From an uncultured Actinomycetes bacterium (GTDB lineage: Bacteria; Actinomycetota; Acidimicrobiia; IMCC26256; DASPTH01): a DNA stretch of 64,000 bases. The position numbers and the translations under genes are program-made. The notes under the pieces are model-generated. The model was not told the origin of the DNA and did not search any database. It saw only the letters and a list, made by a program, of their open reading frames with translations. The DNA lies in the NCBI GenBank assembly GCA_963726965.1, contig CAVSEI010000006.1:454448-518447 (forward strand). Reading direction: 5' to 3'. Below, piece after piece: positions 2,966-63,122 of this stretch (positions are counted from its first letter, which is position 1; the number at the start of each line of letters is the position of its first letter).

Positions 2966-3736
2966 CTAGTAGCCCACTTCCCAGAGGCAGAGTCCGTGAG
3001 GTGCGCCTACCCTTCCCGCCGCGTTGCGATCACGAGCACGGATCAGACGGAGGATGTCACCCGGTCGGATCTTGCCGGTGCCGACGTCGACGAGCGTGCC
3101 GACGATCGACCGCACCATCTGCCAGCAGAACGCGGTCGCGGTGATGTCGTACCGCAGCACGCCGTCGCCGAGATCGTGCCAGCTCGACTCGAGCACCCGG
3201 CGCGTCGTCGTGGTGCCGGGTGGCCCCTTGCGGCAGAACGTGGCGAAGTCGTGCTCACCCAGGAACGGATCCGCGCCCAACCGGAGGCGGCGGAGGTCCA
3301 GTGGTTCCGGCACCCACCACGCCGTCCGAGCGAGAAACGGATCGGGGACCGGTCGGTTCACGACCGTGTAGCGATAGGCCCGCCACCGCGCTGAATGCCG
3401 CGCGTCGAATGGCGCCGCAACCACTTCGGCGTCGCGCACGACGACCTCGGGGCCGAGTTGCCCGTTCACGGCGCGCCCGACGCGCACCGGGTCGATGTTC
3501 TCCACGCTCACCGAACAGGTGACGACCTGACCCCACGCGTGCACACCCGCGTCAGTACGACCCGCGCACGCGAGCTTCACGTCGGCGCGCAGCACCCGCG
3601 ACACGGCGGTCGTCAGCACCCCTTCGACGGTGCGCGTGTCCGGTTGCGCGGCGAACCCGTGAAACTCCGTACCGTCGTACGCGACCGTGAGCTTGAGTAC
3701 CTGCCCCGGCCCGTCGCCGAACGGCAGTTGGGTCAA
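2966..3736 (-). CDS. truA: tRNA pseudouridine(38-40) synthase TruA
   Basis: 256 aa. Motifs FHGFAAQP, AGRTDAGVHAWGQV (catalytic Asp) and FCWQMVR. TTG start overlaps the rplQ stop (TTGA). Confidence 0.9.
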   Translation of the reverse strand: MTQLPFGDGPGQVLKLTVAYDGTEFHGFAAQPDTRTVEGVLTTAVSRVLRADVKLACAGRTDAGVHAWGQVVTCSVSVENIDPVRVGRAVNGQLGPEVVVRDAEVVAAPFDARHSARWRAYRYTVVNRPVPDPFLARTAWWVPEPLDLRRLRLGADPFLGEHDFATFCRKGPPGTTTTRRVLESSWHDLGDGVLRYDITATAFCWQMVRSIVGTLVDVGTGKIRPGDILRLIRARDRNAAGRVGAPHGLCLWEVGY

Positions 3737-4082
3737 ACCAGTTCGACGCGCGCCATGGGCACGTTGTCACCGGGCCGCGGACCCAGTTTGAGGATGCGCA
3801 GGTAACCACCCGGACGGTCGCGGTAGCGCGGCCCGATCTCGGCGAACAGCTTGTGCGTGACGTCCTGATCGTGGATCGTCGCGATCACCTGACGCCGTTG
3901 GTGGACGCCACCGGCCTTGGCCTTGGTGATGAGGTGCTCCGCGTACGGTCGGAGGTGCTTCGCCTTCGCCACGGTGGTGACGAGGTACCCGGCCTCGAAC
4001 AGGCTGGACGCCATGTTGGCCATGATCAGGCGCTGGTGCGCGGGTCGCGCCCGAATCCCGCGCCCTTCTTGGGAGTCGGCAT
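3733..4082 (-). CDS. rplQ: 50S ribosomal protein L17, reading frame broken as given (one base apparently missing near 4038-4044)
   Basis: ATG at 4082 gives MPTPKKGAGFGRDP. The protein then continues in the -1 frame as PAHQRLIMANMASSLFEAGYLVTTVAKAKHLRPYAEHLITKAK... to the stop at 3733. The downstream frame has no start codon after its upstream TAA. Confidence 0.85.
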
Positions 4083-4086
4083 CGTG

Positions 4087-5019
4087 TTACTCCTTGACCC
4101 GCAGGGACAGACCCCGCTCGTCGAGCTTCTGGAGGACTTCCTCGAGCGACTTCGAACCGAAGTTCGTGATCGCCAGGAGGTCGTCTTCGGTCTTGGTGAC
4201 GAGCTGGCCGATGGTGTCGACGCGGGCCCGCTTGAGGCAGTTGCGCGGACGCTCCGACAGCTCGAGCTCCTCGATGGGCAGCTCGAGGTCGGGCGACGCG
4301 GTCGACGGCGCAACCTCGCCGAGCTCGAGCCCGCGGGGCTCGTCGCTCAGGTCGGCGACCAACGCCACCAGGTTGCGCAGGGTGTCACCCGCCGACGACA
4401 GCGAGTCACGGGGTGAGATCGAACCGTCGGTCTCGATCTCGAGCGTGAGCTTGTCGTAGTTGGTGGCCTGCTCGACGCGCGTGGGCTCCACCGAGAACGC
4501 CACCCGACGCACCGGCGAGAAGATGGCGTCGACCGGAATCAGCCCGATGGTCGACGTGCGCTTGTTGCGCTCCGCCGAGAGGTAACCCCGCCCCTGCTCG
4601 ACGGTGAGATCGAGCGCCAGGCGACCCTTGGCATTGACCGTCGCCAGGTGCAGCTCGGGGTTGAGGATCTCGACGTCGGCAGTGGTCTGGATGTCCCCCG
4701 CCGTCACTTCACCCGGACCACGGGCGTCGAGACGCAGGGTCACCGGTTCCTCGGCCGAGCACGTGAGCACGAGGTCCTTGATGTTGAGGATGAGGTCGGT
4801 GACGTCTTCCTTCACGCCGGGGATGACGTCGAACTCGTGCAGCGCTTCGTCGAAACGCACCTGGGTGACGGCAGCCCCCGGGATCGACGAGAGCAGCGTG
4901 CGGCGCAAGCTGTTGCCGAGCGTGTGACCGAAGCCCGGCTCGAGGGGCGCGATGGTGAATTGCTGGAGGTTGCCCTCCGCCTCGCCGGCCTCGACTTGGG
5001 GACGCTGGATGATGAGCAT
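4087..5019 (-). CDS. rpoA: DNA-directed RNA polymerase subunit alpha
   Basis: 310 aa. N-terminal domain FGHTLGNSLRRTLLSSIPGAA. C-terminal domain LELSERPRNCLKRARVDTIGQLV. Confidence 0.95.
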   Translation of the reverse strand: MLIIQRPQVEAGEAEGNLQQFTIAPLEPGFGHTLGNSLRRTLLSSIPGAAVTQVRFDEALHEFDVIPGVKEDVTDLILNIKDLVLTCSAEEPVTLRLDARGPGEVTAGDIQTTADVEILNPELHLATVNAKGRLALDLTVEQGRGYLSAERNKRTSTIGLIPVDAIFSPVRRVAFSVEPTRVEQATNYDKLTLEIETDGSISPRDSLSSAGDTLRNLVALVADLSDEPRGLELGEVAPSTASPDLELPIEELELSERPRNCLKRARVDTIGQLVTKTEDDLLAITNFGSKSLEEVLQKLDERGLSLRVKE

Positions 5020-5091
5020 GGATGCATCGCCTCTGATCTGGTGAGCTGGCCTGCTCGGTCCGCGGCCGCCGCGGACGGAGGATGACGGGGG

Positions 5092-5715
5092 TTACTTGGA
5101 GTAGAGCTCGACGATCAGCTGCTCGCGCACGGGCACGTCGATCTGGTCCCGCAGCGGCACGTCGCGGACGACGGCCTTGAACTCGCTGGGGGTGACCTCG
5201 AGCCACATCGGCACACCGCGGTCGAGGGTGTCGATGTTGTGGCGGAGCACGATCATCTTCTGGGCCTTGGGCGACATCTCGACGACGTCACCCTTCTTCA
5301 CCTGGTACGACGGGATCGTCACCCGCTTGCCGTTGACCAGCACGTGACCGTGGCGCACGAACTGGCGCGACTGGTTGCGGCTGGCGGCGAACGCGGTACG
5401 GAACACGACGTTGTCGAGGCGCAGCTCGAGCATCCGCAGCAGGTTCTCGCCGGTGATGCCCTTCTCGCCGTTCGCGACCGCGTAGACGTTGCGGAACTGC
5501 TTCTCGAGCATGCCGTAGATGCGCTTCGCCTTCTGCTTCTCGCGCAGCTGGAGCAGGTACTCGCTCTCGCGGATGCGACCGCGGCCGTGCTGGCCGGGCG
5601 GGTACGGCTTGCGCTCCACCGGGCACTTCATGGTGTCGCACTTCGGACCCTTGAGGAACAGCTTCATCCGCTCGCGCCGACACAGTCGACAGACGGCTCC
5701 GGTGTATCTCGCCAT
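5092..5715 (-). CDS. rpsD: 30S ribosomal protein S4
   Basis: 207 aa, MARYTGAVCRLCRRERMKLFLKG..., S4 domain. Confidence 0.95.
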   Translation of the reverse strand: MARYTGAVCRLCRRERMKLFLKGPKCDTMKCPVERKPYPPGQHGRGRIRESEYLLQLREKQKAKRIYGMLEKQFRNVYAVANGEKGITGENLLRMLELRLDNVVFRTAFAASRNQSRQFVRHGHVLVNGKRVTIPSYQVKKGDVVEMSPKAQKMIVLRHNIDTLDRGVPMWLEVTPSEFKAVVRDVPLRDQIDVPVREQLIVELYSK

Positions 5716-5718
5716 GAT

Positions 5719-6117
5719 TCAGACCCTCCGGCGCTTCGGCGGCCGACAACCGTTGTGCGGGATGGGCGTGACGTCCTTGATGCCGACGACTTCGATCCCG
5801 GTGTTCTGGATGGTGCGGATGGCGGTCTCACGACCGGAGCCCGGGCCCTTCACCACGACGTCGACCTTGCGGACGCCGTGCTCCATGGCGCGCCGGGCCG
5901 CGGTCTCCGCGGCGAGCTGCGCCGCGAACGGCGTGCTCTTGCGCGAGCCTTTGAAGCCCACGTTTCCGGCCGAGGCCCACGCGATGGTGTTCCCCGACTG
6001 GTCGGTGAAGGTGATGATGGTGTTGTTGAAGGACGACTTGATGTGCGCCGTCCCGTAGGCGATGTTCTTGCGCTCGCGCCGCTTGGGACGACGACCGCCG
6101 GCAGCCGGCTTGGCCAT
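5719..6117 (-). CDS. rpsK: 30S ribosomal protein S11
   Basis: 132 aa, ...[28 protein letters not shown]... Confidence 0.95.
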
Positions 6118-6247
6118 CTCTACTGCTCCGCTTCCACTGCGTTACTTCCGCTCACTTCGTTCGCTCCATCTCTCTGGGTCGCTCGCTGCGAGCCGGGTTA
6201 CCCGGCTCGCACACCGCTCGCTCGCCACTTCGTTCCCGGCTCTCTGG
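6118..6247 (-). repeat. palindromic intergenic repeat element, copy A (rpsM-rpsK spacer)
   Basis: 130-nt spacer with a perfect 23-nt palindrome GCGAGCCGGGTTACCCGGCTCGC at 6188-6210. 10-bp direct repeat GTTACTTCCG at 6141-6150 and 6247-6256. The 23-nt block 6118-6140 matches 12679-12701 at 22/23 positions. Related cores at 12720-12742 and 62005-62027. Confidence 0.65.
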
Positions 6248-6625
6248 TTACTTCCGGGCCTTCTTGCGACCGGCCACGGTCTTCTTCGGTCCCTTGCGCG
6301 TACGCGCGTTGGTGCGGGTGCGCTGGCCGCGCACGGGGAGACCTCGGCGGTGCCGCAGTCCCTCGTAGCTGCCGATCTCGACCTTGCGCTTGATGTTGGC
6401 GGCGACCTCGCGACGGAGGTCACCCTCGACCTTCAGGTTCTGGTCGACGTAGGCGCGCAGTTGCGCGACCTCTTCCTCGGTCAGGTCACGGACCCGCGTG
6501 TTCGGTGAGATGCCCACCGCACCGCAGATCTCCTTCGACCGCGTACGGCCGACACCGAAGATGTAGGTGAGCGAGATCTCCAACCGCTTCTCGCGGGGGA
6601 TGTCGACTCCTGAGATTCGAGCCAC
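6248..6625 (-). CDS. rpsM: 30S ribosomal protein S13
   Basis: 125 aa, [26 protein letters not shown]... Confidence 0.95.
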
Positions 6626-6634
6626 TCAGTTCTC

Positions 6635-6748
6635 CTAGCCCTGGCGCTGCTTGTGACGGGGGTTCGAGCAGATGACGCGCACCGAGCCATGGCGGCGAAT
6701 CACCTTGCACTTCTCACAGATCTTCTTGACCGACGGTCGGACCTTCAT
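6635..6748 (-). CDS. rpmJ: 50S ribosomal protein L36
   Basis: Hand translation gives [37 protein letters not shown] plus TAG. Too short for the ORF track. Confidence 0.9.
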
Positions 6749-6760
6749 GCTCGTTCTCTC

Positions 6761-6985
6761 TCACTTGTAGCGGTAGGTGATACGACCGCGACTGAGGTCG
6801 TAGGGGGTGAGCTCCACTTGCACCCGGTCACCGGGCAGGATGCGGATGTAGTGCATCCGCATCTTCCCGGAGATGTGCGCGAGCACCTTGTGGCCATTCT
6901 CGAGCTCGACCCGGAACATGGCGTTGGGCAACGGTTCGACGACCGTTCCTTCGACCAGGATCGTGTCGTCCTTGGGCTTGGCCAG
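6761..6985 (-). CDS. infA: translation initiation factor IF-1, apparent CTG start
   Basis: Hand translation gives (L)[73 protein letters not shown]. In-frame TGA at 7003-7001 with no ATG/GTG/TTG in between. SD-like GGTGGAG just upstream. Confidence 0.85.
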
Positions 6986-7052
6986 GACTCTCCACCTACT
7001 TCAGATCGGGCGCGCCAAAAGGCGCGCAAAAGCTTCTAGGAGCCGACCGACC

Positions 7053-7082
7053 ATGCTATATGGTCCGACGCCCCCGTGACAA
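7053..7082 (-). promoter_or_regulatory. candidate sigma-70-type promoter upstream of infA
   Basis: Minus strand reads TTGTCA (7082-7077), an 18-nt spacer, then TAGCAT (7058-7053), which fits TANNNT. Motif match only. Confidence 0.3.
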
Positions 7083-7112
7083 TCGGACATTTCGACCACG
7101 CCGAAGGTGCAC

Positions 7113-7865
7113 CTACCAGGGCAGGGTGAGCACCTCGGGACCGTGGTCGGTCACCGCGATGGTGTGCTCGAAGTGGGCGGAGCGACGGCCGTCGGCGGTG
7201 ATGACGGTCCATCCGTCGTCGAGGACCTCGGTCTCGGCGGTCCCCACGTTCACCATCGGCTCGATGGCGAGCACATGGCCCTCCTTGAGCTTCATCCCCC
7301 GACCCGCGGGACCGTAATTCGGCACCTGCGGATCCTCGTGCATGGCCGTGCCGATCCCGTGCCCCACGTACTCGCGCACGACCGTGAACCCGGCCCGTTC
7401 GGCGATGCCCTCCACCGCCGCGCCCACGTCACCCAGTCGATGCCCCTCGACGACCTGGTCGATCGCGGCCTCCAGCGACCGGCACGTCACCTCGATGAGC
7501 CGCCGGGACTCGTCGTCGATGTCGCCGACCGGCACGGTGACCGCGGCGTCCGCATGCCAACCTTCGATGATCGCCCCGCAGTCGATCGAGAGGATGTCGC
7601 CGTCCTCGAGCACCACCGAATCGCTCGGGATGCCGTGCACGATCACGTCGTTCGGCGACGTGCACACCACCGCCGGAAACCCGTGGTAGCCGAGGAAGTT
7701 CGAGCGGGCGCCCCTGCGCTCGATCACCTCACGGGCCGCGGCGTCGACGTCGAGCGTGGTTGCGCCCGGCTTGGCCGCGCGGATGCAGACCTCGTGCATC
7801 TCGGCCACGACCTTGCCGGCACGTCGCATGAGCGCGATCTGCTCAACGCTCTTGCGGGTGATCAC
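7113..7865 (-). CDS. map: type I methionine aminopeptidase
   Basis: GTG at 7865 overlaps the adk stop (GTGA). 250 aa: ITRKSVEQIALMRRAG..., DILSIDCG, EYVGHGIG, LAIEPM, AHFEHT. Confidence 0.9.
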   Translation of the reverse strand: MITRKSVEQIALMRRAGKVVAEMHEVCIRAAKPGATTLDVDAAAREVIERRGARSNFLGYHGFPAVVCTSPNDVIVHGIPSDSVVLEDGDILSIDCGAIIEGWHADAAVTVPVGDIDDESRRLIEVTCRSLEAAIDQVVEGHRLGDVGAAVEGIAERAGFTVVREYVGHGIGTAMHEDPQVPNYGPAGRGMKLKEGHVLAIEPMVNVGTAETEVLDDGWTVITADGRRSAHFEHTIAVTDHGPEVLTLPW

Positions 7866-8536
7866 GGCCGGGCAGGGTCGAAACGCCCGTCGATCTCCTT
7901 GAGCAGGCGCTCGTGCACCTCGTCGCCCGCGCCGTCTCCGTTGACCACCACGAGCTTCCCGAGCTTCTCGTAGAAGTCGATGATGGGAACGGTCTGCGTG
8001 GCGTAGACCTCGAGCCGTCGCGCGACGGCTTCCTCGGTGTCGTCGTCGCGCTGGACCACGTCGCCACCGCAGACGTCGCACGTCCAGTCGATCGCGGGTC
8101 GTTTGTTCACGTGATAGGTCGCGCCACAGGTGATGCACGCCCGTCGCCCCGCGATGCGGTCGAGGATCGTCTCGGTCGGGACCTCGATGTCGAGGACGAC
8201 GTCGAGGGGGTGTCCGATCAGCACCTGCTCGAGCTCTTCGGCTTGCGGCAGCGTCCGCGGGAACCCGTCGAGGATGAAGCCGGCCTCGAGCGGACCACCC
8301 TCCGCGAAGTGCTCGTCGACCAGGCGGATCACGATGTCGTCGGGCACCAGTTCGCCGGTGTCCATGAAGACCTTGACCTCGAGTCCGGTCGGCGTGCCCT
8401 GCGCGACCGCGGCGCGGAACACGTCGCCGGTGGAGAGGTGCTCGACGCCGTAGTGCTGCGAGAGCAGCGCAGCCTGTGTCCCCTTGCCGGAGCCCGGCTT
8501 GCCGAGCAACACGAGGCGTACCCCGGAAGCGGCCAT
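7862..8536 (-). CDS. adk: adenylate kinase
   Basis: ATG at 8536. 224 aa. P-loop LLGKPGSGKGTQA. Zinc lid CITCG...CDVCGG. Confidence 0.92.
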   Translation of the reverse strand: MAASGVRLVLLGKPGSGKGTQAALLSQHYGVEHLSTGDVFRAAVAQGTPTGLEVKVFMDTGELVPDDIVIRLVDEHFAEGGPLEAGFILDGFPRTLPQAEELEQVLIGHPLDVVLDIEVPTETILDRIAGRRACITCGATYHVNKRPAIDWTCDVCGGDVVQRDDDTEEAVARRLEVYATQTVPIIDFYEKLGKLVVVNGDGAGDEVHERLLKEIDGRFDPARP

Positions 8537-8538
8537 GG

Positions 8539-9847
8539 TCAGGCCAGGAAACCTTCGTAGTTCCGCATCATCAGCTGGCTGTCGATCTGCTTCATCGTCT
8601 CCAACGCCACACCGACGGTGATGAGCAGCGCGGTGCCACCGAACGGGAACTGTCTGATGTCCCAGAACGCGAACACGAGCAACGGGATGACCGCGATGGT
8701 CGCCAGGAACAGCGACCCGGGCAGGGTGATCCGGTTCAGCACCTTGGCGAGGTACCGCTCGGTGGGTGGACCGGGGCGGATGCCGGGAATGAACCCGCCC
8801 TGTTTGCGGATGATGTCGGCCTGTTGTGCGGGGTTGAACGCGATCGCGGTGTAGAAGTACGCGAAGAAGATGATCAGCACCGTGTAGAAGCTGATGTACC
8901 ACCAGCCCTGGCGATTCACCAGGTTGTCGTTGATCCACTGCTGGACCCCGACGAAGTTGTCACCCAGCGCCGACGCGATCAGCGCGGGGAACGACAGGAT
9001 CGAGCTGGCGAAGATCACCGGGATCACACCGGACTGGTTGACCTTCAGCGGAATGTAGGTGCTCTGCCCGCCGTACATGCGGCGGCCCACGACACGTTTC
9101 GCGAAATTGCACAGGGATTCGCCGCTGCCCCGATTCCACGAACACGATCCCGACGATCATGCCGATTCCGATGAGGATGATCGTGAAGAACTGGAACTTG
9201 CTGCCCTCACTCCAGATGGCGGCGCCCTGCGCGGGGAGGCGCGACACCACGGACGCGAAGATCAGGATCGACATGCCGTTGCCGATACCGCGTTGGGTGA
9301 TGAGCTCGGCGAGCCACATCACCATCGCCGTCCCGGCCGTCCAGGTGAGCACGATGAGCGCGGCTCGGCCCGCGTCGAAGTGCGGGATGAGGTCCTGGCC
9401 GTTGAACCCGGAGAACCCGAGCAGACCACTCTTGCCCTGGTGCAGGGCGAACACGAACCCGGTGGACTGCACCAGCGCGAGGCCGATGGTCACGTAGCGG
9501 GTCCACTGCGTGATCTTCTTCTGCCCGACCTGGCCTTCGTTCTGCCACTGCTCGAGCTTCGGGATCACGACACCGAGCAGCTGCATGATGATCGACGCCG
9601 TGATGTACGGCATGATCCCGAGGAAGAAGATGGCGACGTTGGTGATCGCGCCCCCGGAGAAGAGGTCGAGGAAGCCGACCACGCCGCTGTTGTCCGCCTG
9701 GTTCTGGAGCTGCTTGATCGCCGAGAAGTCGACGTACGGCACCGGCAGGTGAGCACCCAACCGGTACACCGCGATGATCCCGATGGTGAAGAGGATCTTG
9801 TTGCGGAGGTCGGGCACCCGGAACATGTTCCGCAGGCGGGACAACAT
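8539..9847 (-). CDS. secY: preprotein translocase SecY, frame broken as given (one surplus base near 9104-9108)
   Basis: N-terminal part (ORF 8960..9847) reads ...VESGQRRIPVQF. The expected continuation AKRVVGRRMYGGQSTYIPLKVNQSGVIPVIFASS... is in the next frame (ORF 8539..9090). The junction lies at CAATTTCGCGAAA. Confidence 0.9.
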
Positions 9848-9897
9848 GACGGGCGCGACCTCCTTGCTGACGTTCTGGGCGGGGGAAAACTGCGAGC

Positions 9898-10389
9898 TTA
9901 CCGGTTGGTCAGAGCGTTCCCACGAGCGGGCGGGCGGCCTTCACCCCAGGGTGCGGGGATGATCTCGACCCGTCCGCCGGCGCCTTCGATGGCGGTGACG
10001 GCACCCTGCGAGAACGCGTGCGCACGGACGGTGAGGGCCCGGGTCAGCGCCCCGCGACCGAGGATCTTCACCAGTCCACGCTTGGCCACCAGACCGTGTG
10101 CACGGAGGACACCGGGATCGACCTCGGAGCCGGCGTCGAGACCCTCGAGCGTGTCGAGGTTGACGACGACGTATTCCACGCGGAACGGGTTCTTGAACCC
10201 CTTCGCCTTCGGCGTGCGGCGGTGCAGCGGCGTCTGGCCGCCCTCGAAGCGGGGCGCGATGTTGTTGCGAGCGCCCTGACCCTTCGTCCCGCGGCCGGCG
10301 GTCTTTCCGCCCTTCCCGGCGATGCCACGCCCGACGCGGCGTCGGGGCGTCTTGGCGCCCGGTGCAGGTTGCAGGTCGTGGATCTTCAT
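9898..10389 (-). CDS. rplO: 50S ribosomal protein L15
   Basis: 163 aa, [38 protein letters not shown]... Confidence 0.95.
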
Positions 10390-10577
10390 GCGCTGACCTC
10401 TTCGACGACGACGAGGTGCGGGACGCGGGCGACCATGCCCCGGATCTCCGGACGGTCGGGCAACTCGACGGTGTGGTTGATGCGACGGAGCCCGAGCGCG
10501 CGCATCGTGCCGCGGTGCTTGGGCTTCGTGCCGATCGTGGACTTCACCTGGGTGACTCGCAACATTCCTGGCATCAC
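10386..10577 (-). CDS. rpmD: 50S ribosomal protein L30
   Basis: 63 aa, ...[28 protein letters not shown]... The true start may be a few codons internal. Confidence 0.9.
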
Positions 10578-11122
10578 ACGACCTCGGTGACTTCTGTCTT
10601 CTTCATGTTGCGCTCCCGGTAGGCGCGCAGCATGCCGGCGGTCGACACTTCTTCCGGCGACTTCCCACGGAGACGAGCCACCTCTTCCGGACGCCGCAGC
10701 TCCTGGAGCCCGTTGATGGTCGCGCGCGACACGTTGATCGCGTTCGACGAACCGAGGGACTTGGCCAGCACGTCGTGCACCCCGGCGGCTTCGAGGATGG
10801 CGCGGGCCGCGCCGCCGGCGATGACACCGGTACCGGGCGCCGCGGGCTTCAGCAGGACGCGCGCGGCGTCGTGCTCACCGATGATGGTGTGGGTGATGGT
10901 GTCGCCCGCGAGCGGCACGTTGAAGAGGCGCTTACGCGCTTCCTCCATGCCCTTCTGGATCGCCGCGGGCACTTCCTTGGCCTTGCCGTACCCGAGACCC
11001 ACGTTGCCGGCGCCGTCGCCGACCACGACGAGCGCGGTGAACGAGAACCGCCGGCCGCCCTTGACGACCTTGGCGACGCGGTTGATGGCGATGACTCGCT
11101 CTTCGAACTGGCCTTCGGCCAT
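10574..11122 (-). CDS. rpsE: 30S ribosomal protein S5
   Basis: 182 aa, ...[29 protein letters not shown]... Confidence 0.95.
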
Positions 11123-11146
11123 GGTGAGATCCTCTTCTTCTTCGAG

Positions 11147-11497
11147 TTAGAGCGTGAGCCCGGCTTCGCGGGCACCGTCGGCGATACCGGCCACACGACC
11201 GTGATAGCGGAAACCACCGCGGTCGAGCACCACGGTTTCGACGCCCGCACCCTTGGCGCGCTCGCCGACGAGCTTCCCGATCTTCTTCGCCGCGTCGACG
11301 GTCGCGGTGGCGCCGTCGAACGACTTCTCGATGGTGGACGCCGAGGCCAGCGTGACGCCGTTCACGTCGTCGATCACCTGGGCGTAGATGTGCTTGTTGG
11401 AACGGAACACCGCGAGACGCGGTCGCGCCGCGGTACCGCGGACCTTCTTGCGGACGCGCCGGTGGCGGCGTTCCCTGGCGACCTGACGGTTCTGCAT
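11147..11497 (-). CDS. rplR: 50S ribosomal protein L18
   Basis: ATG at 11497. 116 aa, [44 protein letters not shown]... Confidence 0.93.
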
Positions 11498-11522
11498 GAT
11501 CGTCTTCTCTTCTCCGGCGCTT

Positions 11523-12062
11523 CTACTTCGCCGACTTGCCGGCCTTGCGCAGGACGCGCTCGTCGGCGTAGCGGATGCCCTTGCCCTTGTACGGCTCGGG
11601 CTTGCGAATCTTGCGGATGTCGGCGGCCACCTGACCGACGAGCTGCTTGTCGTAGCCCCGCACGGTGATGCGGGTCGGGATCGGCACCTCGAACTCCACG
11701 CCCTCCGGCGCGTCGACGGTGACCGGGTGCGAGAACCCGAGCTGCAGGTCGAGGTGCTGGGGACCGGCGGCGGCGGCGCGATACCCGACGCCGACGATCT
11801 CGAGCTCCTTGACGAAGCCCTCGGACACGCCCACCACCATGTTCGCGATGAGCGACCGGGTGAGGCCGTGTAGCGCACGGTGCTCGCGCTCGTCGTCAGG
11901 TCGACCGACGATGAGGTCGTCGCCCTCGCGCGAGACGGTGATGTCCGCGGGCGCGTCGTGCTCGAGGGTCCCCTTGGGGCCCTTCACCGTGACGTGGCCA
12001 CCGTCGAGCGTGACCTCGACCCCGCTCGGGATCGGGATGGGCTTCTTGCCGATACGAGACAT
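11523..12062 (-). CDS. rplF: 50S ribosomal protein L6
   Basis: 179 aa, [21 protein letters not shown]... Confidence 0.95.
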
Positions 12063-12074
12063 AGGAGGACTCCG

Positions 12075-12476
12075 TTACCAGACCTGGCAGAGGACTTCGC
12101 CGCCGACGCGACGCTGACGCGCCTCGCGGTCGGTCATGAGGCCCTGGTTGGTCGAGAGGATGGCGATGCCCATCCCGCCGAGGACGCGCGGCACGTCGGT
12201 CGACGCCGAGTACACGCGGAGCCCGGGCTTCGAGACGCGCTTCAGTCCGGAGATCGTGCGCTTGCGATCCGGCGTGTACTTCAGTTCGATCTTGAGCTGC
12301 TGTCCGGGCTTGGTCGCGTCCTTCGAGACGTCGAAACCCGCGATGTAGCCCTCGCGCTCGAGGATGCGCGCCAGCGCCTCCTTCAGCTTCGAGGACGGCA
12401 TCAGGACCTCGTCGTGGAACGCGATGTTGGCGTTGCGCAGACGGGTCAGCATGTCGGCGATCGGGTCGGTCATCAT
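12075..12476 (-). CDS. rpsH: 30S ribosomal protein S8
   Basis: 133 aa, [15 protein letters not shown]... Confidence 0.95.
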
Positions 12477-12492
12477 GAGCGCACCAACCTCC

Positions 12493-12678
12493 TCACCACG
12501 AGGCCTTGGTCACACCGGGCACTTCGCCGGCGTGGACCATGGTGCGGAAGCAGATCCGGCACAGGCCGAAGCGCTTGTACACCGAGCGGGCGCGGCCACA
12601 GCGGCGACACCGCGTGTACCCGCGCACCTTGAACTTCGGCGTGCGCTGTTGCTTCTGGACGAGGGCTTTCTTTGCCAT
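12493..12678 (-). CDS. rpsN: 30S ribosomal protein S14, zinc-binding type Z
   Basis: 61 aa with CRRCGR...CRIC. Confidence 0.95.
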
Positions 12679-12796
12679 CTCTATTGCTCCGCTTCCACTG
12701 CCACGATGGCTCGCTCCCTGCGGCTCGGGATACCCGAGCCGCGGACGGTCGCTCGCGTGCGAATTCCGTTCGCGTTGATCGTGTCCGGTTGATGGT
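12679..12796 (-). repeat. palindromic intergenic repeat element, copy B (rplE-rpsN spacer)
   Basis: 118-nt spacer. Palindrome GCGGCTCGGGATACCCGAGCCGC at 12720-12742, which differs from copies A and C by three compensated base pairs. Shares the 23-nt start-proximal block with copy A. Confidence 0.65.
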
Positions 12797-13378
12797 TCAT
12801 GATCCGCTCTGCTCGTCGCGGCGGAACGGGAAACCGAGAGCTCGGAGCAGTGCCCGGCCCTGGTCGTCGGTCGTGCCCGTGGTGACGATGGTGATGTCCA
12901 TCCCCCGGACGCTGTCGATCTTGTCGTAATCGATCTCGGGAAAGATCAGCTGCTCGGTGACGCCGAAGGTGTAGTTCCCCCGGCCGTCGAACACGTTCGG
13001 GTTGAGGCCACGGAAGTCGCGGATCCTCGGGATCGCGATGCTCACGAGGCGGTCGTAGAACTCCCACATGCGGTCACCGCGCAGGGTGACCTTGGCCCCG
13101 ATGGCCTGGCCCTCACGGAGCTTGAAGCCCGCGATCGACTTCTTGGCCCGGGTGACGAGCGGCTTCTGGCCCGTGATCAACGTGAGGTCGGCGACCGCGC
13201 CGTCGAGCAGCGACTGCTGCACCGTGGCCCGACCGACTCCGCAGTTGAGGACGATCTTCTCCATGCGCGGCACCTGCATCACGTTGCCGAGCTCGAGCTC
13301 GTCCTTGAGCGCGGGCATCAACTCGGTGAGGTACCGCTCCTTGAGGCGCGGACGCACGGCAGTGCTCTCGGGGCTCAC
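12797..13378 (-). CDS. rplE: 50S ribosomal protein L5
   Basis: GTG at 13378 overlaps the rplX stop. 193 aa, ...[41 protein letters not shown]... Confidence 0.93.
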
Positions 13379-13707
13379 AGCTCGGCTCCACACTTCCGAC
13401 AGACGCGGTGCTTCTCGCCGTTCGGATCGATGCGGTATCCGACCTTGACCGGGCCGTCCTTGCCGCACACGAGCATCAGGTTCGAGACGTGGATCGGCAT
13501 CGCCTTGTCCTGGATGCCACCCTGCATCGTCGCTTTGGTCGGCTTCTGGTGCTTCTTGGCGACGTTGATGCCTTCGGAGCTCTCGACGATCACCTTGTTG
13601 CGCTCGGGGAACACGTGCGCGATCTCGCCCCGCTTGCCGATGTCCTTCCCCTGGATGACCTGCACGTGGTCACCCTTCTTGAGCTTCATCTTCGGCTTCA
13701 CGGTCAT
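13375..13707 (-). CDS. rplX: 50S ribosomal protein L24
   Basis: ATG at 13707. 110 aa, [29 protein letters not shown]... Confidence 0.93.
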
Positions 13708-14075
13708 CACAGCACCTCCGGTGCCAGCGAGACGATGCGCATGAACCGACGGTCGCGCAGCTCCCGGCCCACCGGGCCGAAGATGCGCGTCCCGCGGGGC
13801 TGCATCTGCTCGTTGATCAGCACCGCCGCGTTCTCGTCGAAACGGATGTAGCTCCCGTCCGGACGGCGGCGTTCCTTCTTCGTGCGGACGACGACGCATT
13901 TCACGACGTCACCCTTCTTGACTGCTGCACCGGGCACCGCGTCCTTCACGGTGGCGACGAAGATGTCGCCGATGCCCGCATAGCGCCGGCGGGTACCGCC
14001 GAGCACCTTGATGCAGAGCACCTCGCGCGCACCGGAGTTGTCGGCCACCTTGAGCCGGCTCTCCTGCTGGATCAT
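13707..14075 (-). CDS. rplN: 50S ribosomal protein L14
   Basis: 122 aa, [27 protein letters not shown]... Confidence 0.95.
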
Positions 14076-61476: not shown

Positions 61477-61971
61477 TTACTTCTTCACCTCGGCGCCGAT
61501 CTCGAGCGGCTCGGGAACGGGAACGGATTCCATCCATTCGCCGAGCTTGCGCTTGTCGTGCAGCAGGTTGGCGATGTTGGACTCGGAGTACTCGTAGTCA
61601 GGACTCCAGAACAACGCGTCGAACGGGCAGACCTCGACGCAGATACCGCAGTACATGCAGAGCGCGTAGTCGATGTCGAAGCGATCGAGCACGCTCACCG
61701 TACGGTCGCGTCCGCCCTCACGACGCGGCGGACGTTTCTCCTTGTGGCCCTCGATGTAGATGCACCAGTCGGGGCACGATCGCCCACAGAGCATGCAGAC
61801 CGTGCAGTTCTCTTCCTTCAGCGCGATCACACCGCGTGCACGCGTCGGCGGGTCTTCCCGCTCGTGGGGGTACTGCACCGTCACCGCCGGCCGCAGCATC
61901 GTCTTGAACGTGATGCCGAGACCGCTGATGACGCCGGGGACCTTGGGCTTCTTCATCGTGAATATTCCCAT
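61477..61971 (-). CDS. nuoI: NADH-quinone oxidoreductase subunit I (2x[4Fe-4S]); possible 36-aa N-terminal extension from ATG 62079
   Basis: MGIFTMKKPKVPG... with CTVCMLCGRSCP and CMYCGICVEVCP. The frame stays open upstream through repeat copy C to a second ATG that overlaps the nuoH stop. Confidence 0.9.
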   Translation of the reverse strand: MGIFTMKKPKVPGVISGLGITFKTMLRPAVTVQYPHEREDPPTRARGVIALKEENCTVCMLCGRSCPDWCIYIEGHKEKRPPRREGGRDRTVSVLDRFDIDYALCMYCGICVEVCPFDALFWSPDYEYSESNIANLLHDKRKLGEWMESVPVPEPLEIGAEVKK

Positions 61972-62078
61972 CAGAACGCCACCTTCATCATGGCGTCGCT
62001 CACTGCGAGCCGGGATACCCGGCTCGCGGCCGTTTGCTCCACCGCGTACCTCTCCCGCGTCTCGGCTCCGCCTGCCCA
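61972..62078 (-). repeat. palindromic intergenic repeat element, copy C (nuoH-nuoI junction)
   Basis: Palindrome GCGAGCCGGGATACCCGGCTCGC at 62005-62027. 16-bp direct repeat CCCATCAGAACGCCAC at 61967-61982 and 62075-62090, exactly 108 bp apart. Confidence 0.7.
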
Positions 62079-63122
62079 TCAGAACGCCACTTTGAAAACA
62101 CCCGTGAGGAGGATGTTGATCAGGCCGATCGGGATGAGGAACTTCCACGCCAGGGCCTGCAGCTGGTCTTCGCGCAGTCGTGGGTAGGTGAAGCGCACCC
62201 AGAACATGAGGAACGAGACCGCCATGATCTTGGCGAACAGGACACCGGGGCCGAGGAAGCGCATGACGCCGTCGGAGATCCCCCACGACGCGGGGAGCGC
62301 CCAGCCTCCGAGGAACAGCGTCGCCGCGATCGCGGAAAACGCGAACGCGGTGCCGAACTCGCCGATGAAGAAGAAGAGAAACCGGAAGCCGGTGTACTCG
62401 ACCATGTACCCCGCGACGAGTTCGCTCTCGGCGACCGGCATGTCGAACGGCGTCTGCGTGAGCTCGGCCTGCGACGCGATCAGGAAGAGGGCGAACCCGA
62501 CGAACTGGGTGAGGATGAACGGGAAGCCGAGGCCGCTCCACCCGAAGATCGAGCCGTTGCTCTGCACCAGCACGATGCCCTGCAGGCTCATGGTGCCCGC
62601 CTGGATGACCACGCCGACGACTGCGAGGAGGAGCGGCAACTCGTAGGCGATCAGCTGCACGGCGGCGCGCAGCACGCCGAGCAGCGAGAACTTGTTGGCG
62701 CTGGCCCACCCGGCCATGAGCACGCCGACGACCGAGAGGCTCGACACCGCCAGTGCGTAGAACACGCCGACGTTGAGGTCCTTGACGATGATGTCGGGCC
62801 CCGCCGGGATCACGAGGAAGATCAAGAACGTCGAGATGACGACGACGGCCGGCGCGAACGCGAAGACACGCTTGTCGGCCCGGGCCGGAATGATGTCTTC
62901 CTTCTGGATGAACTTGATGCCGTCACCGACGAGCTGGAACCAGCCGTGGAAGCCGCCCGGGTCCATGGGACCGAGACGGCTCTGCATGTGGCTCATCATC
63001 TTGAGGAGGAACACGTAGCCGAGCACCAGGGCGGTGAGCGGCACGATCATCAGGATGAAGACCGTCTTGATCGCGAGGGTGGTGCCCCACCCGATGTCGA
63101 GCGCGAGCAGTGAATGGATCAC
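62079..63122 (-). CDS. nuoH: NADH-quinone oxidoreductase subunit H
   Basis: 347 aa polytopic. ...YELPLLLAVVGVVIQAGTMSLQ..., ...FRFLFFFIGEF... Confidence 0.9.
   Translation of the reverse strand: MIHSLLALDIGWGTTLAIKTVFILMIVPLTALVLGYVFLLKMMSHMQSRLGPMDPGGFHGWFQLVGDGIKFIQKEDIIPARADKRVFAFAPAVVVISTFLIFLVIPAGPDIIVKDLNVGVFYALAVSSLSVVGVLMAGWASANKFSLLGVLRAAVQLIAYELPLLLAVVGVVIQAGTMSLQGIVLVQSNGSIFGWSGLGFPFILTQFVGFALFLIASQAELTQTPFDMPVAESELVAGYMVEYTGFRFLFFFIGEFGTAFAFSAIAATLFLGGWALPASWGISDGVMRFLGPGVLFAKIMAVSFLMFWVRFTYPRLREDQLQALAWKFLIPIGLINILLTGVFKVAF

Follow-up and report, generated by a model that had tools for sequence, protein, structure and literature searches.

A MIRU-like intercistronic repeat as the probable origin of a long rpsM-rpsK spacer in an uncultured member of the Acidimicrobiia

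Why should the genes for ribosomal proteins S13 (rpsM) and S11 (rpsK), which lie close together in related bacteria, be separated by 130 nt in the genome of an uncultured actinomycete of the class Acidimicrobiia? The spacer in question occupies positions 6118-6247 of the window, by which we mean the whole stretch of 64,000 nucleotides analyzed here (C6:454448-518447 of a genome assembly of 3.3 Mb in 12 contigs, 69% G+C and 59% complete). We consider it likely that the spacer, called copy A in the following, is a lineage-specific composite copy of a non-autonomous and translation-compatible intercistronic repeat that belongs to one order of Acidimicrobiia and resembles the mycobacterial interspersed repetitive units (MIRU). 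This explanation draws on the comparison of filled and empty junctions among relatives, on the recurrence of the parts of copy A at other junctions, and on the hairpin and reading frames that the members of the family share.

The rpsM-rpsK junction in this genome and its relatives

In ten same-genus genomes that were read directly, the rpsM-rpsK spacer measures 16-38 nt and contains no hairpin (for example, TAA-CCAGCACGCAGGAGAAGGAACGCAAGC-ATG in G013 and TAA-GAGAAGAGAAGAGGGAACGCAAGC-ATG in G003), and in four further congeners it is ~22-27 nt long by coordinates. A first-pass annotation of this DNA had pointed to a 130-nt gap between genes that normally sit close together, and both halves of that observation hold. 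An ancestral, conserved leader of 130 nt was also looked for among relatives, and the short, element-free form was found in all 14 congeners. Because these 14 same-genus genomes have short spacers without the element, copy A is a lineage-specific insertion, and it stands in place of the ~27-nt spacer of the congeners. The C-terminal codons of rpsM, CGG AAG TAA, are identical in the congeners. Elsewhere in the order the junction carries unrelated long spacers (~154 nt in G027 and ~216 nt in G032, both by coordinates) or long family-like inserts (G029 and G022), and this variability across the order marks it as a hot spot.

The junction is made up of the following parts, listed in the direction of transcription:
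6248-6625, minus strand: rpsM (S13), with the stop codon TAA at 6248-6250
6247-6256, minus strand: left copy of a 10-nt repeat, sense CGGAAGTAAC, consisting of the native rpsM end and the first spacer base
6211-6247, minus strand: 5′ arm, sense CCAGAGAGCCGGGAACGAAGTGGCGAGCGAGCGGTGT
6188-6210, minus strand: perfect 23-nt palindrome GCGAGCCGGGTTACCCGGCTCGC, in RNA GCGAGCCGGG-UAA-CCCGGCUCGC, a 10-bp stem with 9 G-C pairs
6151-6187, minus strand: 3′ arm, sense AGCGAGCGACCCAGAGAGATGGAGCGAACGAAGTGAG, the family consensus AGnGAGCGAnCC and then a unit end of the form ATGGAG...TGA
6118-6164, minus strand: tail block bearing a Shine-Dalgarno (SD) sequence, sense ATGGAGCGAACGAAGTGAGCGGAAGTAACGCAGTGGAAGCGGAGCAGTAGAG, containing the right copy of the 10-nt repeat at 6141-6150
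6126-6129, minus strand: SD sequence GGAG for rpsK, 8 nt before the ATG and inside the tail block
5719-6117, minus strand: rpsK (S11), with the ATG at 6115-6117 confirmed by alignment with relatives

The palindrome had been annotated at 6188-6210 and was confirmed there, as was the duplication of internal segments on its two sides, whose copies, CACTTCGTTC...CTCTCTGG, lie at 6153-6177 and 6226-6247 as direct but imperfect repeats. The 5′ arm opens with 22 nt (6226-6247) that imperfectly match the unit end recurring at 6153-6177, and its flank GCGAGCGAGCGG is of the kind usual in the family. The 10-mer GTTACTTCCG is found twice, at 6141-6150 and, 106 nt away, at 6247-6256, where it takes in the rpsM TAA. 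A word of at least 10 nt common to the rpsM end and the remaining spacer appeared in 12 of 2000 mononucleotide shuffles, so the repeat is not random, although the purine richness of the spacer makes it less extreme than 4^-10. The description of copy A is accurate and its features are not due to chance. The copy is probably a composite of ~1.5 hairpin units and the SD-bearing tail block.

The tail block, the last 47 nt or more of copy A, recurs at other junctions and in other genomes at 92-95% identity and with the same internal junction between GTGAG and CGGAAGTA. It was found at rplE-rpsZ (G021 and G015), at the start of rplK (G023), at the start of an acyl-CoA dehydrogenase gene (G026), and at the rpsM-rpsK junctions of G023 and of a JGI soil contig (L167), in which the tail is ~95% identical and the coding flanks are roughly 80% identical by eye. 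At rpsZ, rplK and the acyl-CoA dehydrogenase gene, TAGAG or TAGAC always stands immediately before the ATG. In G003, G009 and G011 a shorter, related form of the tail lies before the GTG with which the gene downstream of an rdgB-like gene begins, and two more congeners have degraded versions. At the rpsM-rpsK junction of G023 (G023:C94:27540-27800, L151) a hairpin-less unit of ~65 nt, with the tail block at its end, is present as a tandem duplicate.

These recurrences bear on the proposal that the 10-nt repeat is a target-site duplication. The repeat is indeed present at both positions, but its right-hand copy, CGGAAGTAAC in the sense direction, lies inside a block that recurs at other junctions and is therefore element sequence. 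That placement precludes reading it as a fresh target-site duplication in this genome; it is at most a fossil one carried along with the block. Its perfect match to the rpsM end may mean that the block was born at rpsM-rpsK and then copied, or it may reflect microhomology at integration. The companion prediction, that excising 106 bp should restore the spacer of the relatives, failed: the deletion product, TAA-CGCAGTGGAAGCGGAGCAGTAGAG-ATG, resembles the congener spacers only in CGCAG and in purine richness, and at 23/24 positions it matches the rpsZ leader of G021, which is of another genus. Nearly the whole rpsM-rpsK spacer is element-derived. A metagenome search for the predicted empty site, GGAAGTARCGCAGTGGAAGCGGAGCA, gave no match, and a second metagenome pattern returned one JGI contig, L167, which carries another filled rpsM-rpsK allele and not the empty one.

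A hairpin family at stop/start junctions

The degenerate pattern proposed in the first-pass annotation matches three sites in the window, at 6188, 12720 (rplE-rpsZ) and 62005 (nuoH-nuoI), so the related elements reported at two other junctions are real; the 6 strand-matches compare with 0.10 expected by shuffling, and 6 were reached in 0 of 100 shuffles. In the whole genome the strict pattern occurs at 5 loci, looser searches recover a related 56-nt unit, GTGAGCGTGAGCGAG[C/G]CGGGTATCCCG[G/C]CGAGTAGCGAACGCCCAATGGAGnnnGC, which stands singly or in arrays of 2-4, and profile searches find ~33 units at ~24 loci. The units are GAGCG-rich, ~55-60 nt long and built around a G+C-rich hairpin, and other hairpin variants, such as GCGGCGCAGGTAYCCTGCGCCGC, are found between the same GAGCGA-rich flanks in this genome. 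Junctions with elements include rpsM-rpsK, rplE-rpsZ, nuoH-nuoI, ksgA-ispE and iscS-mnmA. At 17 of the 17 loci of this genome that were examined in detail by direct reading, the element points in the same direction as the gene whose stop codon it adjoins, and the arrangement seen is one of direct tandem arrays and single copies, in sense orientation, at stop/start junctions.

The search of relatives that the annotation had called for extended the family further. Of 9 sampled same-order genomes, 7 have the strict pattern (hairpin plus 3′ flank), and none of 32 genomes that represent other orders of the class has it, with a reversed-pattern control giving 0 in all genomes scanned. One genome of the order, G063 (3.6 Mb), holds 109 strict matches in arrays of up to 8 units with an 84-86-nt period (arrays of 7-8 units lie, for example, at C1:595112-595726 and C1:2414738-2415278), an expansion that is suited to the study of mechanism and of orientation statistics. 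G034 and G043, by contrast, have no copies. A scan of public genomes for the hairpin core matched at least 115 stretches, with 80 records listed. Among the matches listed, those with family flanks are all from metagenome-assembled genomes (MAGs) of Acidimicrobiia type, mostly from soil; some of these have no finer label than Actinomycetota or Actinomycetes, a few are listed as "Bifidobacteriaceae," and one of those few is the same DNA as the relative G019. A literature search on such repeats in Acidimicrobiia found no paper. The family, whose small hairpin repeats are restricted to a single order of Acidimicrobiia from soil, has apparently not been described before.

Core matches in Kribbella, Streptomyces, Pseudomonas, Solirubrobacterales and others were rejected, those checked being chance or coding matches without family flanks, and at least one non-Acidimicrobiia core match is, read by eye, coding ...SEAGIPA... 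sequence. In unrelated bacteria the hairpin core GCGAGGCGGGTATCCCGGC (L039 and similar loci) belongs to coding sequence for ...ASEAGIPA..., apparently in glutamate 5-kinase, again by eye. Since the core can be ordinary coding sequence, core-only pattern searches yield false positives.

Conservation of the G+C-rich hairpin is structural. A set of 26 distinct hairpins, drawn from this genome and its relatives and all with stems of at least 9/10 pairs, has compensatory double changes at 6 of the 10 stem pairs and 98% of cells paired; 0 of 500 shuffles matched the observed pairing and covariation, and slid controls were 34-50% paired. The compensatory changes are A-U to G-C in 8 and C-G to G-C or U-A in 6, and the outermost pair is G-C, G-U or A-U. 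In the predicted fold of the copy A spacer the hairpin is the only stable feature, with the rpsK SD unpaired in the centroid fold. The sequence after the hairpin is AGCGAGCGACCC, without a U-tract, and 5600-6800 holds 0 terminator-like sites; no promoter-like site was found around copy A, and Rfam covariance models gave no match at E<=1 in 3500-14000 on both strands. An intrinsic terminator was accordingly rejected for want of a U-tract, and a known structured RNA, such as a ribosomal-protein leader, for want of an Rfam match. A CRISPR array was rejected because the would-be spacers are identical and the period is 56.

The reading frames are as regular as the hairpin. The hairpin is nearly always read in the frame xCG-GGT-AxC-CCG, and the open reading frame (ORF) in that frame stops in a GTGA/ATGA context in 21 of 27 copies of this genome and exactly 39 nt past the loop in 14 of the 27. 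From these stop positions, each 56-nt unit is a 19-codon ORF whose stop overlaps the next start. Copy A contains the following small ORFs:
6152-6214, minus strand: mini-ORF 2, GTG at 6214-6212 to TGA at 6154-6152, 20 codons, VCEPGNPARSERPREMERTK
6120-6155, minus strand: mini-ORF 3, its GTG overlapping the TGA of mini-ORF 2 as GTGA, with the stop TAG at 6122-6120
6142-6228, minus strand: alternative mini-ORF 1, GTG...TAA, 28 codons, ending at the duplicated TAA, 24 nt before rpsK

Mini-ORF 2 is in the rpsM frame and in the usual hairpin frame of the family. The TAG of mini-ORF 3 is followed by AG and then by the rpsK ATG (TAGAGATG), that is, the stop comes 2 nt before the start. The frame of mini-ORF 3 is kept in G021, G015, G023 and L167, so that the tail frame of copy A is confirmed in four other assemblies. 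Past its TAA, the rpsM frame runs on for another 32 codons without a stop, crossing the hairpin, until it meets the TGA at 6152-6154 (6152-6262, minus strand), and the element is stop-free in the frame of a neighboring gene both at copy A (rpsM) and at copy C (nuoI).

The two other copies in the window show the same features in different settings:
12679-12796, minus strand: copy B, at the rplE-rpsZ junction, hairpin GCGGCTCGGGTATCCCGAGCCGC with three compensated pairs
61968-62091, minus strand: copy C, at the nuoH-nuoI junction, hairpin at 62005-62027

The tail of copy B is the same as that of copy A, and its entire spacer is one 39-codon mini-ORF, which begins at an ATGA that overlaps the rplE stop and extends to the TAGAGATG of rpsZ. 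The nuoH-stop/nuoI-start overlap is duplicated as 16 nt on either side of copy C (61968-61983 and 62076-62091), whose 108 nt are in frame with nuoI.

We propose that such repeats are tolerated inside essential operons because they are translationally transparent. Members of the family would be co-oriented with transcription at stop/start junctions, often in arrays whose copy number differs between species. The mini-ORF of a unit would start at or near the upstream stop, and its own stop would either overlap the start that follows (GTGA/ATGA) or precede that start by 2 nt (TAGAGATG). The SD for the downstream gene would come from the tail block; the SD of rpsK (GGAG, 8 nt from the ATG) is element sequence. 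Copy A would be co-transcribed with its operon without terminating transcription, and rpsK could be translated from the SD of the element, by ribosomes passed along a relay of mini-ORF 2, GTGA, mini-ORF 3 and TAGAGATG, or by both routes. The hairpin would be neutral or, at most, modulate mRNA stability. As for spread, duplication-generating recombination or template switching at short stop-codon homologies might suffice in place of a dedicated transposase, and homologous exchange of filled spacer alleles between lineages might contribute.

Several observations weigh against this explanation. Co-orientation was established by a detailed look at 17 loci, all of them in this genome. The hairpins used for covariation were those with well-paired stems, and a short-stem subfamily keeps 6 inner pairs together with a tandem (2x2) GA/AG internal mismatch. 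At the rpsM stop there is no overlapping start codon, and the nearest in-frame GTGs lie 19 and 33 nt downstream; the relay is therefore weak at its first step, and the SD may suffice by itself. Co-transcription, hairpin read-through and mini-ORF translation are all deduced from sequence. Transposase-free spread is put forward here as a tentative proposal. Finally, there are frame breaks elsewhere (in secY), so the frames of single copies could be off by an indel.

Flanking duplications and the origin of copy A

Duplications beside the elements are a real trait of the family, with flanking repeats of 4, 7, 10, 13 or 16 nt. Elements of the same type are present or absent, and vary in copy number, at the orthologous ksgA-ispE, iscS-mnmA, arsA-like and alr junctions across the genus. 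The first three of these junctions are a plain GTGA/ATGA stop-start overlap in most congeners; those before alr are more varied. In filled genomes 1-3 units are found at the orthologous sites, and the end of each nearly repeats the final 7-13 nt of the gene upstream (GGAGCTGGCATGA, 13/13 in this genome; GGAGGCGGCGTGA, 13/13 in G009). The unit at the arsA site of G009 carries an iscS-type end, which indicates that whole 56-nt units get copied, earlier duplication included. In G010, three units repeat ~13 nt of the start of the downstream gene. A DDE or Y1 transposase does not agree with flanking repeats whose length varies (4-16 nt), with the strict orientation and with amplification in tandem.

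Insertion can also replace sequence. At rplE-rpsZ the empty allele of 13 congeners reads ...GAGCAGAGC-CAGGGGTAA-CGCACAG-ATG, and the filled allele of this genome, G009, G015 and G021 reads ...GAGCAGAGC-GGATCATGA-AC...TAGAG-ATG (G009 has TGA-CATGA here); the insert took the place of the two final rplE codons, of the stop codon and of the spacer of 7 nt. The C-terminus of L5 is ...EQSGS-stop with the element vs. ...EQSQG-stop without it (window 12797-12810 and relatives G010/G012/G001, L181-L183), and the repeat thereby rewrites the end of an essential gene.

A classical REP (repetitive extragenic palindrome)/REPIN element or MITE (a miniature transposable element with inverted repeats), that is, a transposase-mobilized palindrome that inserted at rpsM-rpsK and left a 10-bp target-site duplication, would explain the perfect palindrome and the 10-nt direct repeat with the rpsM stop in it, and clear target duplications do exist elsewhere in the family (16 nt at nuoH/nuoI, 13/13 at the arsA-like and iscS sites, ~13 nt in G010). 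We nevertheless regard it as very improbable. The RAYT/Y1 transposase (PF01797) was found neither in this genome nor in 39 of 40 relatives, with control genomes positive, and the sole match among the relatives is in G034, an element-free genome. Terminal inverted repeats are absent and the flanking repeats vary in length; the arrays are direct and tandem, without inverted pairs, and follow the orientation of the genes; the right-hand 10-mer belongs to a conserved block of other junctions; and the 106-bp excision product differs from the spacer of the congeners. What stands of the original proposal of REP/MITE-like colonizers of junctions is a dispersed family that does enter essential operons; the REP/MITE label itself is given up for lack of RAYT and of terminal inverted repeats. 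It is likewise improbable, if somewhat less so, that the hairpin was selected as a cis-regulatory RNA (an mRNA stabilizer, an RNase processing site, an attenuator or a ribosomal-protein site), with the repeats as a by-product. Covariation in the stem, including G-U intermediates, fits a constraint at the RNA level, the orientation is strictly that of the mRNA, and the tail block is ~95% identical between lineages in which the flanking coding DNA is ~80% identical. Such a role is hard to reconcile with the absence of the hairpin at the same junction in 14 congeners, with its presence in operons as unrelated as nuo, iscS-mnmA and ksgA-ispE, and with the lack of a U-tract, a terminator call or an Rfam match; in addition, S13 and S11 are needed in equal amounts, so a device for differential stability has no obvious use here.

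A more serious possibility, although still not the one we expect, is that the filled spacer was imported ready-made from another lineage by homologous recombination, with the conserved rpsM and rpsK genes as arms. Filled rpsM-rpsK junctions with the same tail are patchy, occurring in three distant lineages (this genome, G023 and L167) and neither in the 14 congeners nor in G016, which is of the same genus as G023; the tail is more conserved than the coding flanks; and a filled rplE-rpsZ allele with an altered rplE C-terminus is shared by this genome, G009, G015 and G021 vs. 13 empty congeners. However, the coding DNA adjoining copy A is nearest to the congeners (94-98% identity vs. 78-87% to G023), no recombination tract is visible, and the hairpin core differs among the filled alleles, so further events in situ would be needed anyway. 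Import concerns origin only and is compatible with a MIRU-like repeat. An artefact of long-read MAG assembly, to which frame breaks elsewhere in the window might point, deserves next to no credence: the family occurs with the same flanks in dozens of assemblies made independently, a JGI metagenome contig and short-read assemblies among them, and indel errors do not make structured inserts of 130 nt. More speculatively, and rather unlikely in our judgment, the elements could be a new, transposase-independent "junction cassette" with its own stop, coupling mini-ORF, hairpin and SD, which overwrites stop/start junctions even in the most conserved operons and spreads among lineages of one Acidimicrobiia order through a hairpin- or stop-codon-directed enzyme or through recombination seeded by captured junction sequence; the tail block would then be a fossil rpsM-rpsK junction carried to rpsZ, rplK and other genes.

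Relation to known repeats and further observations

MIRU, reportedly described by Supply et al. in 1997, have no transposase that we know of and are, to our knowledge, so far known only from mycobacteria. Two papers describe them as 40-100-bp mycobacterial repeats that are intercistronic and transcribed with the operon, insert at start codons, and contain an internal ORF that couples by a 4-nt overlap; short direct repeats, empty sites in relatives and variable tandem copy number are also mentioned (PMC12548453; PMC3184786). The present family is similar in size and number, with units of 55-60 nt at tens of loci (copy A being a 130-nt composite), and in its position in sense between co-oriented genes of operons, copies A, B and C lying in ribosomal-protein and nuo operons. 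The 4-nt ORF overlap is seen in 21 of 27 copies of this genome, and in part in copy A, which has GTGA between mini-ORFs 2 and 3 and none at the rpsM stop. Tandem number varies as well, from arrays of 2-4 in this genome and 0-3 at orthologous loci of congeners to as many as 8 in G063. The family differs from MIRU in belonging to another class of Actinomycetota, in having a strong, covarying G+C hairpin as its core, in a second type of 3′ end with an SD and a stop 2 nt before the ATG, and in flanking duplications of up to 13-16 nt, some insertions also replacing the end of the upstream gene. No Mycobacterium record is among the 80 records listed in the public hairpin-core scan. All functional MIRU features that were tested are shared by the family. 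Because the taxon differs and the comparison was one of features, we term the family MIRU-like, not MIRU.

Other systems are less similar. REP, BIME and REPIN elements of Enterobacteria and Pseudomonas are short G+C-rich palindromes in many copies, sometimes intercistronic, that are associated with RAYT transposases, and REP hairpins can stabilize upstream mRNA. The family likewise consists of short G+C-rich palindromes in many intercistronic copies, but it forms direct tandem arrays instead of inverted doublets, its orientation follows the genes, it carries mini-ORFs and an SD, and it sits exactly on stop/start junctions, whereas REP elements lie loosely downstream of genes. MITEs of the Correia/NEMIS and ERIC types are small non-autonomous repeats with terminal inverted repeats and a fixed TA or short duplication; they occur in both orientations, are co-transcribed with genes and can alter mRNA processing. 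The family is also small and non-autonomous, but no terminal inverted repeats were found in it, the GAGCGA flanks being direct on both sides, and it has neither a fixed-length duplication nor both orientations. Rickettsia palindromic elements (RPE) and similar repeats are described, in one of the papers above, as fusing in frame with genes (PMC3184786). The element is comparable in being stop-free in one frame, and copy C is an exact in-frame addition of 108 nt to nuoI. It differs from RPE in that copy A lies outside coding sequence and that the family targets junctions, not gene interiors.

Junctions of the alpha and spc operons are among the most conserved gene boundaries in bacteria, and these data show that they can be overwritten by a small repeat; this may be tolerated because the element rebuilds the signals that it disrupts (stop, coupling ORF and SD). 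If the MIRU-like explanation is right, the MIRU phenomenon would extend from mycobacteria to an uncultured soil order, with as many as >100 copies in a 3.6-Mb genome and a covarying hairpin core. It would provide a second, independent system in which to study transposase-free movement of repeats and translational coupling as a limit on the location of mobile DNA. The arrays of variable copy number could be used to tell strains apart in soil metagenomes, and the repeats also lead to annotation errors, among them false ORFs and spurious N-terminal extensions.

Some further observations concern the window and its surroundings. The secY gene (minus strand, 8539-9847) appears to be split into overlapping ORFs at 8960-9847 and 8539-9090, both of which are SecY by eye, and the change of frame near 9090 is probably an assembly indel error, a warning that the reading frames of this MAG are not fully reliable. 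Elements cluster in the ribosomal-protein region. Outside the window, a copy with a different hairpin, GCGGCGCAGGTACCCTGCGCCGC, lies at C6:451555-451599 (2.9 kb before the window start), and a two-unit 56-nt array precedes an alr-like gene at C6:446106-446215 (8.2 kb before the window start).

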